A DNA stretch of 64,000 nucleotides from Candidatus Bathyarchaeota archaeon (lineage in GTDB: Archaea > Thermoproteota > Bathyarchaeia > 40CM-2-53-6), in assembly GCA_963706285.1 (NCBI GenBank), contig CAVPLU010000004.1, forward strand, positions 192,001-256,000, written 5' to 3'. How positions within the stretch are numbered: the first letter of the stretch is position 1; each line of letters opens with the position of its first letter. Position numbers and translations under genes: made by a program. Of this stretch, positions 2,442 through 17,351 are shown piece by piece. The notes below the pieces were generated by a model that was given only the letters and a program-made list of their open reading frames with translations, was not told the DNA's origin and searched no databases.

Positions 2442-4061
2442 ATGTCTCTTACTGGCATGTCCGCGGTGGACCTTGTGCGGCGTCGTAAGACGCCTATGCT
2501 CCTTGTAGTACTTGCCCTTCTATCACTCTCTTTTCACGCAGGCATCGCCAAGAGCGAAGGAATCCCCATAGAACACATAGTGATTCTATACGAAGAGAAC
2601 CGCACATTCGACCACTACTTCGGAACATACCCTGGGGCAAATGGTATCAGCATGAACATAGCTCTCCCCAAGACGCCGGGGTCAAATGAGACAGTTCGTC
2701 CGTTTCATATTCCTACGACAAGCACCCACGATCTCGACCATTCAAACCGAGCCGCGAAAATCGCCTACAACAATGGCAAGATGGATGGGTTCGTGTATGC
2801 AGAGAAGTCGAACCTTACCATGGGTTACTATGACTCCCGAGACATCCCATACTACTGGGATTATGCATCGAAATTCGTGCTCATGGACAATTTCTTCACC
2901 TCGCAGATGGGCCCGAGCCTACCGAACCATCTGTACCTTATCGCCGGCCAGTCAGGTGGCCTGATCGAAAACCCCGGGCCATGCCAATCAAGGGAGATCT
3001 GTGGAGAGCAATCAAAGAATCCGTACGCATTGCCCAGCAATCTCGTTTTTGATTTCAAGAATGTTATGGATGAACTTGACAATCGCGGCATATCTTGGAA
3101 ATACTATACTGGTGACGAGGAAAACTACAGAGAGGCAGGTTACTGGAATCCTCTGCCTGCTTTCGCATCTTTCAAGAGCAACCCGTCACGACTAAGCAAC
3201 CTTGCACCGAACGATCGATTCCTGATCGACTTGGCCAACGGAAATCTCGCCAAGGTGGTGTGGGTGATCCCTGAGGAGGATGAGAGCGATCACCCGTCCG
3301 CCGACGTGAAGGTCGGGCAGGGATATATGGTATCTATGATCAACGCCATAATGAGAAGTGAATACTGGTCGTCCACAGCAATATTCGTGACTTGGGATGA
3401 CTACGGCGGATGGTATGATCATGTTCCTCCACCGCAGATAGACGCCTTCGGCCTAGGATTCAGGGTTCCGTGTCTCATCATATCCCCATACGCCAAAGAA
3501 GGATTCATAGACCACACCCAAGCTGAGTTCTCCTCAATCCTCAAATTCGTAGAGGCAGTTCACGGTCTTCCTCCTCTCACACAGAGGGACGCGATGGCAA
3601 GCAACTTGTTTGAAGCATTCGATTTTTCTCAACCATCCAGGCCACCTTTGATCCTTCCAGGACCATACGTGCCTCACCAATACCCTCTCACGTTGACTGA
3701 GAACGCAAGTCAAGCGATAGATTTACTCGCAAAGGCAAAAGATCTGATGACAAAGGCTCAGACTTCGAACTTCACGAGTGTTGAAGCTCAAGCCATGGTC
3801 GAAGAGGCGATCAGCGAGTACAATTCAGCACAGCGAGCTTTCTCACGAAACGACTTCGTTGTCGCGAAGGAACGTGCCCAAGTCGCCTTAGATTTGTTCG
3901 TGAAAGCCTACTCAGTCGAAGAGAATTACAGACAGACGCTGCAAGGAGAGGGGAGACAGAACGATGTCCTCAGCTACGTCCTGCCCGTGGCTGTCTCCAG
4001 TTTCGTTCTGGGGGCCGTAACATTCTATCTCGTTAGAAGAAAAGCCGGAAAACACTCCTGA
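2442..4061 (+). CDS. Secreted, C-terminally anchored phosphoesterase (phospholipase C/acid phosphatase family)
   Basis: Signal peptide, HIVILYEENRTFDHYFG, GPSLPNH, TWDDYGGWYDHVPPP, helical extension, then TM helix and basic tail. Confidence 0.88.
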   Translation: MSLTGMSAVDLVRRRKTPMLLVVLALLSLSFHAGIAKSEGIPIEHIVILYEENRTFDHYFGTYPGANGISMNIALPKTPGSNETVRPFHIPTTSTHDLDHSNRAAKIAYNNGKMDGFVYAEKSNLTMGYYDSRDIPYYWDYASKFVLMDNFFTSQMGPSLPNHLYLIAGQSGGLIENPGPCQSREICGEQSKNPYALPSNLVFDFKNVMDELDNRGISWKYYTGDEENYREAGYWNPLPAFASFKSNPSRLSNLAPNDRFLIDLANGNLAKVVWVIPEEDESDHPSADVKVGQGYMVSMINAIMRSEYWSSTAIFVTWDDYGGWYDHVPPPQIDAFGLGFRVPCLIISPYAKEGFIDHTQAEFSSILKFVEAVHGLPPLTQRDAMASNLFEAFDFSQPSRPPLILPGPYVPHQYPLTLTENASQAIDLLAKAKDLMTKAQTSNFTSVEAQAMVEEAISEYNSAQRAFSRNDFVVAKERAQVALDLFVKAYSVEENYRQTLQGEGRQNDVLSYVLPVAVSSFVLGAVTFYLVRRKAGKHS

Positions 4062-11783: not shown

Positions 11784-12876
11784 TCATTGAGATGGTATGT
11801 AGCCGGCCTTCACTAGGTGCTCCGTGACCAGGACTGCGCCTTTGGCAGCGCCTAGTCTAGTGTTGTGGCTGACCAAGACGTACTTGACTCCATGTTCTCG
11901 GATTTGGTCTTGCCGGATTCGACCAACACTTACTGCCATCCCATCGTATAGGTCGCGGTCCATTCTTGGTTGTGGTCTGAAAGGATCATCCTTTACTACC
12001 AACAGCTCCTTCGGAGCTGAAGGCAGATCGAGAGTGTGCTTTCCGAATTTTCTCATTGAATCTGCGACTTCACTGGGGTCGCATCGTTTTCGAGTTGAAA
12101 CGTAGACTGCTTCAGTGTGGCCTTCGAGTACGTTGACTCTTGTGCAGGTGCAGCTAACTTTGAAATCCGCTGGCGAGACATGCCCGTTCGCTTCGTCGCC
12201 CAGAATTTTCTGGGTCTCTTTCTGCACTTTCTCTTCCTCGCCTGGGATGAACGGAATCACGTTGTCTGTAACATCAAGTGAGAGAACGCCCGGGGATCTG
12301 CCCGCGCCTGATACGGCTTGCATGGATGTCATCGTGACATTTTCTATTCCAAAGTCGACGTGTATCGGTTTCAGCGAGACTACCAGGCCCATCGTTGTGC
12401 AGTTCGGAATGGGAGTGATGAATCCGTTCCACTGGCGTTTCTTCCTCTGCGTGTGAATGAGTTGGGCGTGCTCAAAGTTGATTCCTGGCACAAGGATGGG
12501 GACATCATCATCGTATCGGAACGCAGAGGCGGTGCTAATAACCGGCTTAGTTCTTGCGTATTTGGGTTCGAGCGTGCGTGCAATATCGGAATCCAAAGCT
12601 GTGAAGACAACATCAATTCCAGAGAGATCCAAAGTAGACGCATCTTGCATGGGCATACGGAGAGTTGAGTCTGGGCTGTCGTCGCTGCAGTACCAGCGTA
12701 GCGCTCCCGTCGCTCGGATCCCGAAGCGCTTCCTCGTAGGTTTTGCCCGCGGATCTCTCGGAAGCTGCGAGACATGAGATTCTGAACCATGGGTGCCGGT
12801 CCAGAGCTGCTACGAATTGCTGGCCGACTATACCTGTAGCACCTACTATTGCCACGTTGAGCATTGGTTTGTTCAT
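11784..12876 (-). CDS. asd: Aspartate-semialdehyde dehydrogenase (one frameshift near 12650-12700)
   Basis: ORF 12613-12876 has VGATGIVGQ; ORF 11784-12656 has [20 protein letters not shown]. Confidence 0.93.
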
Positions 12877-13067: not shown

Positions 13068-14111
13068 CTATTCTCCATTCAAGGTTCGATTGAGGGCAAG
13101 CAAGTCACTCAGGAGCGCATATCCGGCTGACTCTGCGCCCGCTCCAGGCCCAACTATTGCAACTTCCGGTTGCATGTCAGTTGACAAGATCATTGCGTTG
13201 AGCACTCCCGATACATGAGACAATAGGTCGCTTTCCTCCAGCCTATCAGGGATCACTTGTGCGCTAATTCGGCGTCCATCCCTCTCCGCTTTGGCAATGA
13301 GTTTGATCCTTTTCCCTTTGGCTCTCGCGTCGTTGATATCCTCGAGTGTGATTCCTGTTATTCCTTGCCTTCTCACTTCTGCGAGCTTGATCCTACCTTT
13401 CATTAGTACATTCGCGAGTATGGTGAGCTTTGCTGCTGAATCCCAAGCTTCTACATCACTGCTTGGATCAGCTTCCGCGTAGCCCTTATTCTGGGTCATT
13501 CTCAAAGCCTCCGCGTACGGCTTACCGGCTGCCATCTCGTCGAGTACGTAGTTCGTGGTTCCGTTCAAAATGCCTCGGATCGAATTTATTGTTGAACCAG
13601 CTAGGGCTTCCGTTGCTAAGCTTATCGCAGGAGTTCCGCTCAGAACAGTGCCCTCAAATTTGAGATTGCATTCATTTCGACGCGCTAAGGCAGCGAGTTC
13701 GTGATAAGCTAACGCGATGGGGCCTTTGTTCGTAGTCACCACGTGGAGGCCTTTGCCGAGGGCTTTCCTGATATGACTTAGTCCAGGCTCTCCATCTTTG
13801 AGGTTAGTCCATGTTGCTTCTACCAAGACATTTGCGTTCGTTCTTCCGATCGTCTCAAGAGCTGAAAGGCCCTTGGTTCCTTCCTTGTAGTCTGTTACAG
13901 ACCCCTTCTCTTGCACAGATGAAAGTAGCTTTCCAAGTCGAAGACCACTTTGGTTCATCACGGAGCCTTTGATGGTGTCTGCGACAGCCACGACCTTGTA
14001 GTCGAATCCAAACTGGCGCTTCAAATTTGCCTGTTTCTCCACTAAAGTCTTCGCAAGGCTCTGCGCAACTCTGCCAAAACCCACGAGGGCAATCCGGAAT
14101 TTCATGAACAA
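13068..14111 (-). CDS. hom: Homoserine dehydrogenase
   Basis: GFGRVA, VVTTNKGP, GILNGTTNY, GYAEADPSSDVEAWD, GPGAG. Confidence 0.95.
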   Translation of the reverse strand: MFMKFRIALVGFGRVAQSLAKTLVEKQANLKRQFGFDYKVVAVADTIKGSVMNQSGLRLGKLLSSVQEKGSVTDYKEGTKGLSALETIGRTNANVLVEATWTNLKDGEPGLSHIRKALGKGLHVVTTNKGPIALAYHELAALARRNECNLKFEGTVLSGTPAISLATEALAGSTINSIRGILNGTTNYVLDEMAAGKPYAEALRMTQNKGYAEADPSSDVEAWDSAAKLTILANVLMKGRIKLAEVRRQGITGITLEDINDARAKGKRIKLIAKAERDGRRISAQVIPDRLEESDLLSHVSGVLNAMILSTDMQPEVAIVGPGAGAESAGYALLSDLLALNRTLNGE

Positions 14112-14140
14112 GCCCTCATCCTAATTCATCGCTGGAACGT

Positions 14141-15358
14141 TCAACTTTGCGAAAGCACCGCCATCACCGATTCTCGAGTCGGCTTCACGTTGACCATTCG
14201 CTCTGTAGAAACGCCTATCGCTTCCTGATCCTTCAAGCCATTGCCTGTCGTGATGCAAACAGTCTCCTCGTCAGCGTCAATGAGGCCTCCAGCTGCAAGC
14301 TTTCTAACGCCTGCTATGGCTGAGGCGCTTGCAGGTTCGACGAAGATGCCTTCTTTGGACGCGAGCATTTTTTGGGCATGAAGGATCTCATTGTCATTGA
14401 CGGTTTCAATCAGTCCTTTTGATTCCCTGGCGGCTGCAAGGGCTCTCTTCCAGTTGACGGGCGATCCTATCCTGATGGCAGTGGCGATTGTCTCTGGGTT
14501 TGCAGCTGGTTCGATGTAATCGAGGCCAAGCTTGAACGCTTTCGCAATTGGTGAAGCTCTTTCTGCTTGGATGCCTATTAGACGTGGAAGCCTATCCGCC
14601 AGCCCTAGGGCTCTGAGTTCGAGCAGACCCTTCCAGACCGCAGTAATATTGCCTGCATTCCCGACCGGAAGTACTATGACCTCCGGGAGACGGCGAAGCT
14701 GGTCATTGATCTCAAACACGACTGTCTTCTGCCCCTCGACTCTGAACGGGTTGACCGAGTTCAGGAGATATGGGCTTCCATCTTTCCGAGCTGCGTCGAC
14801 GACGAGGCGCATCGCATCGTCGAAGTTGCCATCAATCTCGATTATCTTTGCACTATGCACAACAGCTTGAGCGAGCTTCCCCGCCGCGATCTTGCCCGAA
14901 GGAATCATGACGAAACATTTCAGACCAGCCCTTGCCGAGTAAGCGGCAAGGGACGCCGAGGTGTTACCCGTTGACGCACACATCGTCGAGTCTGCGCCGA
15001 GTAGGAGTGCTTTCGTCACGCCGATAGTCATACCTCTATCTTTGAACGAGCCGGTTGGATTCTCGCCCTCGTTCTTGACATGAAGCCGTTTCACCCCTAG
15101 AGTGCTCGCGAGACGTCGGCATTCGTGAAGTCCAGTGCCGCCTTCTCCAAGCGAAATGATATCGGCGCTTACGTCGATTGGTAAGACCTCGCGGTATCGC
15201 CATACACCGAGTTCTCTAGCGCTCCAGCCCCTAATGTCCAGATCTGCCATGTCGACAAGCTTGATCTCAAGCAGGCCACCGCATTTCCCGCATACGTATG
15301 CGCGTTCGTTCAGATTATGTAAGGTTCCACATTCAATGCATTCCATTGTGTGCTCCAT
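14141..15358 (-). CDS. thrC: Threonine synthase
   Basis: N-terminal zinc ribbon, NPTGSFKDRG PLP lysine motif, ASTGNTS, PVGNAGN, TGNGLKD. Confidence 0.95.
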   Translation of the reverse strand: MEHTMECIECGTLHNLNERAYVCGKCGGLLEIKLVDMADLDIRGWSARELGVWRYREVLPIDVSADIISLGEGGTGLHECRRLASTLGVKRLHVKNEGENPTGSFKDRGMTIGVTKALLLGADSTMCASTGNTSASLAAYSARAGLKCFVMIPSGKIAAGKLAQAVVHSAKIIEIDGNFDDAMRLVVDAARKDGSPYLLNSVNPFRVEGQKTVVFEINDQLRRLPEVIVLPVGNAGNITAVWKGLLELRALGLADRLPRLIGIQAERASPIAKAFKLGLDYIEPAANPETIATAIRIGSPVNWKRALAAARESKGLIETVNDNEILHAQKMLASKEGIFVEPASASAIAGVRKLAAGGLIDADEETVCITTGNGLKDQEAIGVSTERMVNVKPTRESVMAVLSQS

Positions 15359-15501
15359 TCGCCATTTACTCCTTGTCGCTTGAGACCGACACGGAAGGCA
15401 TCGATGTCGTCCAACATGAACTGTCGTTGGCGCGAGAACTCGAAAGGGCAGTTGAGTTTTGATTAGAGCACATTTTCAGTCACAATCCAATTCATCAGGA
15501 C

Positions 15502-15555
15502 GCCGATCAGCGAGAAGGTAACTCCGAGGATTTCAGGAGCACCGTGCTGTTCGGC
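15502..15555 (-). promoter_or_regulatory. 54-nt imperfect hairpin immediately after the leader ORF stop codon
   Basis: On the minus strand GCCGAACAGC pairs with GCTGATCGGC (9/10) and inner GGT-GCTCC pairs with GGAGT-T-ACC. Confidence 0.55.
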
Positions 15556-15624
15556 TCAGCTAGTGCTATGCGTTGTCACTTCAGATGTGACTGTTGTCGA
15601 CGTGCTGGGAGTAGGAGTGGGCAA
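15556..15624 (-). CDS. Candidate Thr-rich leader peptide of the threonine genes (22 aa, MPTPTPSTSTTVTSEVTTHSTS)
   Basis: 9 Thr codons in 22; TTG start 5 nt after GAGGTG SD; TATA-like TTTTATTA upstream; same strand as thrC and about 200 nt upstream of it. Confidence 0.6.
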   Translation of the reverse strand: MPTPTPSTSTTVTSEVTTHSTS

Positions 15625-15629
15625 CGCTG

Positions 15630-15668
15630 CACCTCGGCCGTCCAGTTGTCGATCAACACGTAATAAAA
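15630..15668 (-). promoter_or_regulatory. TATA box and SD driving the leader ORF / thr cluster
   Basis: TTTTATTA at 15668-15661 and GAGGTG at 15635-15630; spacing puts the expected TSS near 15636-15640. Confidence 0.55.
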
Positions 15669-15773
15669 CTTGCCCAGGGGGTCGACGCATTTCAAAATCA
15701 GCTGACGAATGCAAATCGCGAGCGAGCTGGCCGCCGAATAATCCTCTGAAACGGGATCTTTGGATCTATGTTC

Positions 15774-17351
15774 CTATGTGGAGGGTTGTGCACGTGCGTC
15801 ACTAGCGCTGTCCGCTTCTTCCACGCTCCAAGCTCTCTCGATGCCCTTACGGCGATAGATGAGCAGTTTCACGCGGTTCATCACGTACGCAAGGAAGACA
15901 TGTTCCTGATGGTAGGTTCTATCGAGGATTGCCTCTTCGGATAAGAACGCTGTCTTCAATTCGTCCAGCTCTCTCTTGGGCGAGAAGAAGGCATATACTG
16001 GAACTCCAACCGCCAACAAGACTAGCGAGACTAGGATCTGCTGCTCAGCAACTTGCGTCATCAACACAAGCGAGAAGATGACTGTGAGCGTTGGGACTAG
16101 TAGTTTCGCTGTTTTCTTCTCGCTCAGTTTTGGATGTTTTTTCTCCAACAAGTATGTGGAGATGCCTGTTGCGAGATACGCGAACGATAGAAGGAAGACG
16201 GAGCTGTTGATCAGTGTCGATAGTGTGCCAATCACGCTTGCAATGAATGCTGTTGCACACAGAAGAGCCAACCCAATGTAGGGTGTGTGAAAAGAACTGT
16301 GCAACCTGCTGAACAGCCGAGGGAGTAAGCCGTCGGTCGACATTGCAAAAGCCAATCGCGATGTCCCTATTGTTCCTGACTCATCCGCCCCCATTATCGA
16401 GACCAACGCTCCAACACCCACGATTATACTCCCAACCCATGCCAAACTGGGCGATAGACTGAACACATTCGCGCCTGCCACGGTCAATGGAGCTGGTGAA
16501 GACACGAGCGTCGCTTGATCGACAACGCCAACTATCACGAAGTTTGTGACGAGATAGAAGCAAGTGACAATCATCATGCCCACTGCTATGGCTTTTGGAA
16601 TGGTTCGCCTCGGGTTCTGTATTTCGTCAGCGGGCAAAGTGCAAAGCTCGAAACCGGCATAGGCCCAAAAGATCAGCACCAGTGCTTGTCCCACATTTCG
16701 TAGGTCGCCCTTGAAAAAAGGTTGGAAGTTGGAGAATGCAAGCTCGTGACGTAATCCCATGAACAATAATCCTGAGACCATCAAGAGGAGGAGTGGGCCG
16801 AGTTTCCCCAGTGTCAAGATGTCATTGAATTTGCCCGCCGACTTAACCCCGACTACGTTCGTTATGAAAATAATTGCGATGAATAGTCCTTTCAACAAAA
16901 TCTGAGAAAACGTATCCAAGTTTGGAATGAATGCCAGAAAGTACTGAGTGAAGGCTACGGGGAAGACAGCTAGGGAGAACCACTCAGCAAGCAGAAGCGC
17001 CCAACCAACGAGGAATCCAGGGAACGGACCGCCCACATTCTTTGCATACGCGTACGGTCCGCCAACCCTTGGCAAAATAGTGGCACAGTAAGAGAAAGAG
17101 AGAGCGATTACAATCGCCATGACGCCTGCAATTACCCAAAGCACAAGCGACGCCGGGCCGACGAGTCTCGCGCCGAGCGCTGCTGCCACATATATGTCAG
17201 CTCCAATGATGGAGCCAACCACGAGATTCGTAACGTCAAAGGTATTCAGCCGTCGTGTTAGATTGATTTTGCCACTCAAACCATTCCACTCGGCGCCGGC
17301 AAGTGAACCAAGTAAGTATCGATGTGCCGCTACTAAAGTATCAGATTCCAC
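15774..17351 (-). CDS. APC family amino acid permease
   Basis: About 12 TM helices, VVGSIIGADIY, GGPYAY, FWAYAGFE, EIQNPRRTIP. True start may be slightly downstream. Confidence 0.9.
   Translation of the reverse strand: MESDTLVAAHRYLLGSLAGAEWNGLSGKINLTRRLNTFDVTNLVVGSIIGADIYVAAALGARLVGPASLVLWVIAGVMAIVIALSFSYCATILPRVGGPYAYAKNVGGPFPGFLVGWALLLAEWFSLAVFPVAFTQYFLAFIPNLDTFSQILLKGLFIAIIFITNVVGVKSAGKFNDILTLGKLGPLLLLMVSGLLFMGLRHELAFSNFQPFFKGDLRNVGQALVLIFWAYAGFELCTLPADEIQNPRRTIPKAIAVGMMIVTCFYLVTNFVIVGVVDQATLVSSPAPLTVAGANVFSLSPSLAWVGSIIVGVGALVSIMGADESGTIGTSRLAFAMSTDGLLPRLFSRLHSSFHTPYIGLALLCATAFIASVIGTLSTLINSSVFLLSFAYLATGISTYLLEKKHPKLSEKKTAKLLVPTLTVIFSLVLMTQVAEQQILVSLVLLAVGVPVYAFFSPKRELDELKTAFLSEEAILDRTYHQEHVFLAYVMNRVKLLIYRRKGIERAWSVEEADSASDARAQPST

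Follow-up and report, generated by a model that had tools for sequence, protein, structure and literature searches.

We analysed a 64,000-nucleotide (nt) stretch of a Candidatus Bathyarchaeota archaeon genome (contig CAVPLU010000004.1, positions 192,001 to 256,000; hereafter the window), whose minus strand carries a threonine biosynthesis (thr) operon, thrC-hom-asd-lysC, headed by a short upstream open reading frame (uORF) that is rich in threonine codons and probably encodes a threonine-sensing leader peptide. All elements of this leader lie within the 415 nt that separate an amino-acid permease gene from thrC on that strand (Table 1). The initial annotation had described a TATA box, a GAGGTG Shine-Dalgarno (SD) sequence, a TTG start codon and a 22-codon open reading frame (ORF) with nine Thr codons about 200 nt before thrC-hom-asd-lysC, and every one of these was recovered in place. 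The uORF (MPTPTPSTSTTVTSEVTTHSTS, 22 sense codons) opens with a TTG at 15624–15622 and closes with a TGA at 15558–15556, and the thrC ATG at 15358 follows 197 nt past this stop. GAGGTG is a perfect SD, since it is complementary to the 3' end of the 16S rRNA of the window's own genome, ...GGAUCACCUCCU.

Table 1 Features of the thr leader and operon and of two further leaders. Coordinates refer to the window unless another contig or locus is named.
Feature	Position	Strand	Remarks
Amino-acid permease gene	17351–15774	minus	Pfam
TATA-like box TTTTATTA	15668–15661	minus	44 nt 5' of the uORF start; putative promoter of the thr mRNA
SD of the uORF, GAGGTG	15635–15630	minus	5-nt spacer to TTG; CGAGG nearly invariant in relatives
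Leader ORF (uORF), TTG + 21 codons + TGA	15624–15556	minus	9 Thr codons
Hairpin H2, arms GCCGAACAGC / GCTGATCGGC	15555–15502	minus	begins directly at the uORF stop codon
Conserved block TGAATTGGATTGTGA with SD-like GTGA(C) of the next ORF	15494–15480	minus	TTGTG invariant; predicted mostly unpaired
35-codon ORF from a conserved ATG	15473–15366	minus	remnant of thrB N-terminal extension; ends 7 nt from the thrC ATG
thrC (threonine synthase, PALP)	15358–14141	minus	Pfam
hom (homoserine dehydrogenase)	14111–13068	minus	Pfam
asd (aspartate-semialdehyde dehydrogenase), two frames	12876–11784	minus	Pfam names the 12656–11784 part
lysC (aspartate kinase, ACT domains)	11779–10361	minus	Pfam
Ser-type leader	L167:2588–2671 (G271:C99)		followed by a serB-like gene, L167:2749–3228
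Second leader, before ilvB	G000:C3 about 3101–3262 (L146:1339–1500)	plus	33 codons, TTG start, ends LLSIVVSVVLVLIVVQ

The whole 2.13-Mb genome contains 59,675 open frames with a length of 22 codons or more; 5 of these have at least nine Thr among their last 22 codons, and the four besides the uORF lie within or end open frames of at least 90 amino acids (aa). Thr makes up 41% of the uORF codons, compared with 5.9% in the long ORFs of the same genome, and the Thr content of the uORF exceeds chance. Its translation is putative, as predicted in silico from the perfect SD and from the retention of the start codon in 34 of the 35 pattern-bearing sequences described below. Longer versions of the frame were rejected: an in-frame TTG at 15714, which would give 52 codons, lies 5' of the TATA-like box and shows no conservation as a start codon, and the 52- and 44-codon in-frame extensions are open in part of the genus only and extend upstream of the TATA box.

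Conservation of the leader in related genomes

Among the nine other genomes of the genus, four carry a thrC orthologue at 77–88% identity (G001, G002, G005 and G007; G000 denotes the window's own genome, and G and L numbers are labels of compared genomes and loci), and leader DNA accompanies the gene in all five genus genomes that have it, the window included. In G002, G005 and G007 the leader precedes thrB, which abuts thrC, and in G000 and G001 it precedes thrC itself; the element therefore tracks the head of the operon rather than any single gene. A search for thrB (E <= 1e-40) was negative in G000 and G001, despite four other GHMP-kinase genes in G000, and an alignment showed that both genomes retain the leader with the beginning of thrB and have lost the remainder. 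The conserved ATG of the 35-codon ORF is the thrB start in relatives. A deletion of the first thrB copy was also observed in G065; after these three independent deletions, ORFs of 35 (G000), 38 (G001) and 58 codons (G065) are left running from the conserved ATG, and in G000 and G001 the post-deletion ORF reaches to within 10 nt of the thrC start.

Translating the regions upstream of thrC in relatives, a check proposed with the initial annotation, yielded short Thr-rich ORFs despite sequence divergence, as it had predicted. The alternative that it had raised, a decayed serine/threonine/proline (S/T/P) linker of a surface-protein gene, is contradicted by the conservation in register of the promoter box, SD, start and stop.

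Additionally, genome and metagenome contigs were scanned with a DNA pattern that is blind to the ORF, having been drawn from hairpin H2 and not from the uORF. It matched 5 genome contigs and 24 metagenome contigs, bringing the pattern-bearing sequences to 35 when the window and earlier loci are included, and 24 distinct cores remained after removal of identical ones. In 34 of the 35, a TTG stands 20–22 codons before an in-frame TGA and opens a Thr-rich ORF (for example MHPTALHVTTTTTTTTTTQSTR). L039, from an actinobacterial metagenome-assembled genome (MAG), has neither a start codon nor a Thr run and was set aside as a chance match to the pattern.

Over 29 distinct leaders, Thr accounts for 24–55% of codons, with the full set of four Thr codons in use (ACT 85, ACG 74, ACA 69 and ACC 27), while stops interrupt the +1 frame in 14 leaders and the +2 frame in 17. 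Nucleotide diversity at codon positions 1, 2 and 3, calculated from 20 gap-free genus sequences, is 0.295, 0.223 and 0.290, so that the uORF product is not conserved in the manner of a protein. Nevertheless, codons 13, 17 and 21 specify Thr in 20/20 of the genus sequences and codon 18 does so in 19/20, and at the remaining positions Thr, Ala, Ser, Pro and Val interchange. This pattern points to selection that targets the Thr codons rather than a peptide.

More distant leaders were sought in the 1.5 kb before thrC at 28 loci and in the 520 nt before thrB in 80 further Bathyarchaeia genomes, which revealed poly-Thr ORFs with the same layout in G032, G037, G311, G012, G065 and G211 (for example MHSALLNFVTTTTTTTTTQTN). 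G211 belongs to another order, and there the Thr run is kept within unrelated sequence. A covariance model built on the stop-plus-hairpin region matched 12 of 105 genomes of the window's order, with one match per genome apart from two in G001. The leader of G071 was found through this model and not by its Thr run; it had been missed in the thrB survey because two thrB copies stand behind it. A further match, in G004:C6 (E = 0.027), proved to be the 3' end of a protein gene and was discarded.

Several observations concern the genes and copies that go with the leader. In G001 there are two slightly different leader copies (G001:C87:225–584 and G001:C62:4–241), one of them at a contig end, which looks like a strain mixture in the bin. 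thrC-like paralogues are numerous in Bathyarchaeia of this order, with up to 11 matches per genome, and only the thrC orthologue with N-terminal Cys-x-x-Cys motifs is linked to the leader. Open frames of thrB behind a leader measure 342–386 aa, as against about 305–336 aa for leaderless thrB, the extra length being a poorly conserved N-terminal extension of about 40–57 aa.

RNA layout and leaders for other amino acids

The layout was compared in 13 representative leaders, and a further one, from G271, was folded in addition (14 in all). In relatives, a TATA-like box (CTTATTA or TTATAT) is conserved 42–47 nt before the start codon, which follows the SD and is TTG, except in G065 and G071, where it is ATG. 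The uORFs of the 13 leaders share one plan of 20–24 codons, in which a Thr run is followed by one or two other codons and then by a further Thr two to four codons before the stop. H2 stands at the uORF stop codon in 14/14 of the leaders folded, measures 49–69 nt in 13 of them, and includes the stop codon in its base. In these 13 leaders, the segment from stop to next start has a folding energy of -21 to -33 kcal/mol, a stretch of 15–33 nt after H2 that contains the next SD is predicted to be unpaired, and the next start codon lies 73–91 nt past the uORF stop. The GTGATC in the relatives' conserved block matches the anti-SD GAUCAC.

Three sequence forms of H2 were distinguished (the genus, other families and G211), in addition to a variant in G271, with compensatory changes between lineages at stem position 4 (C-G, U-G or U-A) and at position 7 (A-U or G-C). 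Within the genus no independent variation of H2 can be claimed, since the search pattern fixed those bases. The uORF varies more than H2 and the block TGAATTGGTTTGTGA do. A smaller candidate helix, H1, pairs the last codons of the run and CAG with C-UGA-GUCG and so shares GUCG with the base of H2. Compared with shuffled sequences, H1 gave p = 0.05–0.20 in six lineages other than the window's, and the pairing is also possible in G271. Closely after H2, UUUU occurs in G032, G037, G311 and G211, and it lies a short distance away in G271. An outer helix suggested by RNAalifold, pairing the end of the uORF with UUGGU-UU-GUG, has no compensatory changes and is not common to the other lineages, and was dropped.

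The G271 leader retains this scaffold, with a TATA box, an SD, the tail ACU-CAG-NNN-NNN-AAC-UGA-GUCG and H2, around a different codon run. Its 27-codon ORF holds nine Ser codons, all of them UCN, and one Thr codon; UCA-UCA takes the place of the ACC-ACA of Thr leaders, and the H1 arm ACU-CAG is retained even here. A 55-aa ORF follows this Ser-type leader on its 3' side, as does a serB-like gene truncated at the contig end, the first 102 residues of which match SerB best (TIGR00338, E = 3.9e-26). A second contig (L169) overlaps the serB-like gene at 90% identity and continues it as HAD plus class-V aminotransferase, so that the two are fused there. Among 16 genomes of G271's family, searches with the serB fragment or the RNA model gave no further Ser-type leaders.

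The window's own genome also carries a leader with Leu, Ile and Val codons before ilvB, which surfaced in a genome-wide scan for compositionally biased mini-ORFs that was otherwise too noisy (441 matches). Its stop lies 39 nt before the ilvB start and is directly followed by a 10-bp hairpin whose 3' arm contains the ilvB SD, leaving that SD fully paired (unpaired probability 0.00). This leader is conserved in G008, G002 and G007.

Threonine sensing, its possible output and rival explanations

We propose that the thr mRNA has the 22-codon ORF as its first cistron and that this ORF serves as a threonine-sensing leader peptide; the probability of roughly 0.8 that we give this covers the sensor and no single output mechanism. 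Threonine sensing is inferred from the anatomy of the leader together with bacterial precedent, in which ribosomes slow at Thr codons; the same idea in the initial annotation, ribosome-mediated sensing of Thr, was likewise reached by inference and is now supported by comparative evidence. When charged tRNA-Thr is scarce, the first ribosome would stall on the Thr codons, and its position would decide whether the lower stem of H2 forms. In the lineages other than the window's, a ribosome stalled early in the run would leave H1 free to capture the 5' base of H2, and one stalled at the last Thr codons, two to four before the stop, would cover that base itself, while a ribosome that runs through and leaves would allow H2 to fold. 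A ribosome at the stop codon must, on this model, have melted the 5' arm of H2, and a stall within the run would leave H2 intact.

For the output in the family as a whole, we lean tentatively, at somewhat less than even odds, towards a conditional event at the U-rich stretch that follows H2, where transcription would terminate prematurely or pause; termination would be intrinsic or would proceed through aCPSF1/FttA, the archaeal termination factor. In the lineages other than the window's, H1, H2 and UUUU together resemble an antiterminator/terminator pair.

A number of observations weigh against these proposals, both as to the output and as to the sensor. In the window, a scan of 15250–15850 for bacterial-type promoters and terminators found 0 of either, H2 is followed in the genus by UU-CCUCAU and not by a U run, and in the window's genus H1 is unsupported when compared with shuffles (p = 0.37–0.88). 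A ribosome on the stop codon would itself cover the 5' arm of H2, so that a simple terminator logic needs a kinetic assumption. We also modelled ribosome occupancy with partition-function folds, placing a ribosome on each codon and taking in first 18 nt and later 63 nt on the 3' side; the next ribosome-binding site (RBS) became more or less accessible in one of 13 leaders, the window's own, and was flat in 12, in a model that is a weak test because the ilvB leader also gave no clean result in it. Pairing of the RBS was no better than in shuffles, whether with the uORF (p = 0.07–0.95), with the 3' arm of H2 (p = 0.31–0.96) or with the apex of H2 (p = 0.25–0.95), and pairing of the uORF with the 3' arm of H2 was no better than in codon shuffles (p = 0.39–0.97). 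Read-through or frameshifting from the uORF into thrB was rejected because the frame relation between the two differs among lineages, and translational bypass of H2 because matching take-off and landing codons are absent.

As to the sampling, six of the distant leaders were selected by the Thr run itself, the 23 genus sequences are close kin and not independent, and the Ser variant is a single contig. The covariance model found nothing credible outside the order in a 151-genome sample of the class, and the leader is rare, standing before thrB in 10 of the 92 Bathyarchaeia genomes examined and before thrC in two; it is real yet patchy in distribution. Finally, a metatranscriptome contig with 98% identity covers 15428–15635; its upper end lies 11 nt 5' of the TTG, about 30 nt past the centre of the TATA box. 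A contig from a second metatranscriptome run covers 15207–15451. These give a weak hint that the leader and thrC share one transcript, but contigs from RNA runs may derive from DNA, and they are uninformative on starts, ends or levels. A thrC transcription start 3' of 15556, which the initial annotation had named as a refutation, found no support, and the contig over 15428–15635 weakly hints against it.

An output through translation or mRNA stability, served by the same sensor, is nearly as likely as termination or pausing. Here, a ribosome stalled near the 5' end, together with a folded H2, would make the message more translatable or longer-lived, either by remodelling the leader, as in ermC and the mycobacterial polycysteine small ORFs (sORFs), or by shielding it from 5'-to-3' decay. 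The window and its genus, in which neither a U tract nor a terminator-like site follows H2, favour this output, as do the ORFs kept after the three thrB deletions, which fit translational coupling, and the masked ilvB SD of the same genome. In the window alone, a segment of the Thr run, ACAGUCAC, can pair with the SD segment GUGACUG, and under modelled stalls the accessibility of the RBS rises from 0.23 to 0.45; however, this pairing is not conserved (p = 0.07–0.13 in the window and 0.24–0.95 elsewhere), folding predicts an unpaired RBS after H2, with no partner better than shuffled controls, and the 12 other leaders in the occupancy model were unchanged.

The remaining explanations dispense with the sensor. 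A reading of the leader as riboswitch-like structured RNA, or as the binding site of a protein such as a Thr-responsive repressor, with the ORF a by-product of A/C-rich sequence, would suit the stronger conservation of H2 and its neighbouring block and the lack of a protein-like excess of diversity at third codon positions; yet it is improbable, given that start, stop and frame are kept in all but one of the pattern matches, that the uORF SD fits the organism's own anti-SD, and that Thr codons vary synonymously and shift in position while the Thr content stays at 4–9 times the genome mean. The Thr run of G211 within unrelated sequence, the Ser codons set in the same scaffold before serB and the absence of any Rfam match at E <= 1 speak against it as well. 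Since uORFs can repress downstream genes without sensing anything, the uORF might instead be translated as a constitutive damper, or for a Thr-rich peptide with a role of its own, and not as a Thr gauge. This we consider still more improbable, as the enriched codon is that of the end product of the operon behind it, the codons become Ser before serB and Leu/Ile/Val before ilvB, and the peptide is not conserved outside its Thr positions. Virtually no weight is left for a chance ORF or for a decayed fragment of an S/T/P linker or of the deleted thrB: remnants of the thrB deletion do lie nearby in G000 and G001, but the same ORF is intact upstream of an intact thrB in relatives, and equal Thr richness is found in only the five genome frames counted above.

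Known systems and wider context

Leader-peptide attenuation is a textbook outcome of coupled transcription and translation in bacteria, and archaea also couple the two processes. The leader of the enterobacterial thr operon, thrL, is a ribosome-mediated transcription attenuator with a short ORF rich in Thr codons at the 5' end of the mRNA. The leader described here is like it in having a short Thr-rich ORF at the 5' end of the operon, with a hairpin after the ORF and an enrichment that is kept while the peptide drifts, and in one lineage (G032) it contains Ile codons too. It differs in its archaeal TATA-type promoter and TTG start, in its first gene, which is thrB or thrC and not thrA, and in placing the stop codon in the base of one large hairpin, whereas thrL forms a four-segment 1:2 / 2:3 / 3:4 switch. 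In the window, there is no terminator formed by a hairpin and a U run, and a search of 14000–17000 against Rfam, including RF00506 (Thr_leader), gave no match at E <= 1. The term thrL-like used in the initial annotation is thus apt for the sensor, and for the window it does not extend to a terminator-like site, an Rfam match or a four-segment switch.

Another parallel is offered by the mycobacterial polycysteine sORFs, for which Canestrari et al. (bioRxiv 10.1101/834739) describe stalled ribosomes that block a duplex sequestering the downstream RBS, the sORFs themselves being leaderless, and suggest that a genome with several of them could possess a ribosome-directed regulon. The likeness lies in a run of codons for a single amino acid within a small first cistron that controls, here putatively, expression of the cognate operon, and here thr and ilv leaders occur in one genome; the differences are that no RBS-sequestering duplex was found here and that a 5' untranslated region with an SD is present. 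In the ermC leader, as summarised in the uORF4u article (PMC10219788), drug-induced ribosome arrest exposes a masked SD. Arrest on a leader ORF that alters nearby mRNA structure is common to ermC and our proposal, and the difference is that the thr RBS is predicted to be unmasked, although in the ilvB leader of that genome the SD is masked. One trait of translational attenuation is present in the 13 leaders, a small ORF as first cistron at the short distance from the next start given above.

Full-text literature searches turned up no article that describes leader peptides controlling amino-acid operons in archaea, in line with the remark in the initial annotation that such control is poorly documented there; PMC10219788 states in general terms only that uORFs act in archaea. 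The kind of sensor proposed here is thus known from bacteria and, according to those searches, undescribed in archaea. More broadly, though we hold this to be rather unlikely, Bathyarchaeia may possess a family of ribosome-read gauges for Thr, Ser and Leu/Ile/Val, in which the position of the ribosome would be linked, by a hairpin that takes in the stop codon, to archaeal termination, through U tracts or aCPSF1/FttA, or to mRNA decay, without the bacterial four-segment switch. If true, Archaea would gain their first described attenuation mechanism, one that is new in kind.

The locus offers a concrete, testable case, with a sensor ORF that is conserved, a natural exchange of Thr for Ser codons in step with the downstream pathway and a second leader for Leu/Ile/Val, in a lineage of abundant uncultured sediment archaea. 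Its layout does not fit the bacterial switch, and the output step could reveal an interplay of archaeal RNA polymerase, termination factor and ribosome. Annotation gains as well: ORFs of this size escape gene callers, and they show where the 5' ends of biosynthetic operons really lie.

Two minor observations concern the assembly. Near a contig end of the window's genome (G000:C10, about 257,500–260,086), the sequence is very G+C-rich and open in all six frames, compared with 51% G+C in the remaining genome, and is probably foreign or chimeric sequence in the MAG, whose contamination estimate is 7.5%. Within the window, asd is divided between two overlapping frames, 12613–12876 with the N-terminal 87 codons and 11784–12656 with the other 290, which reflects either a frameshift or an assembly error.

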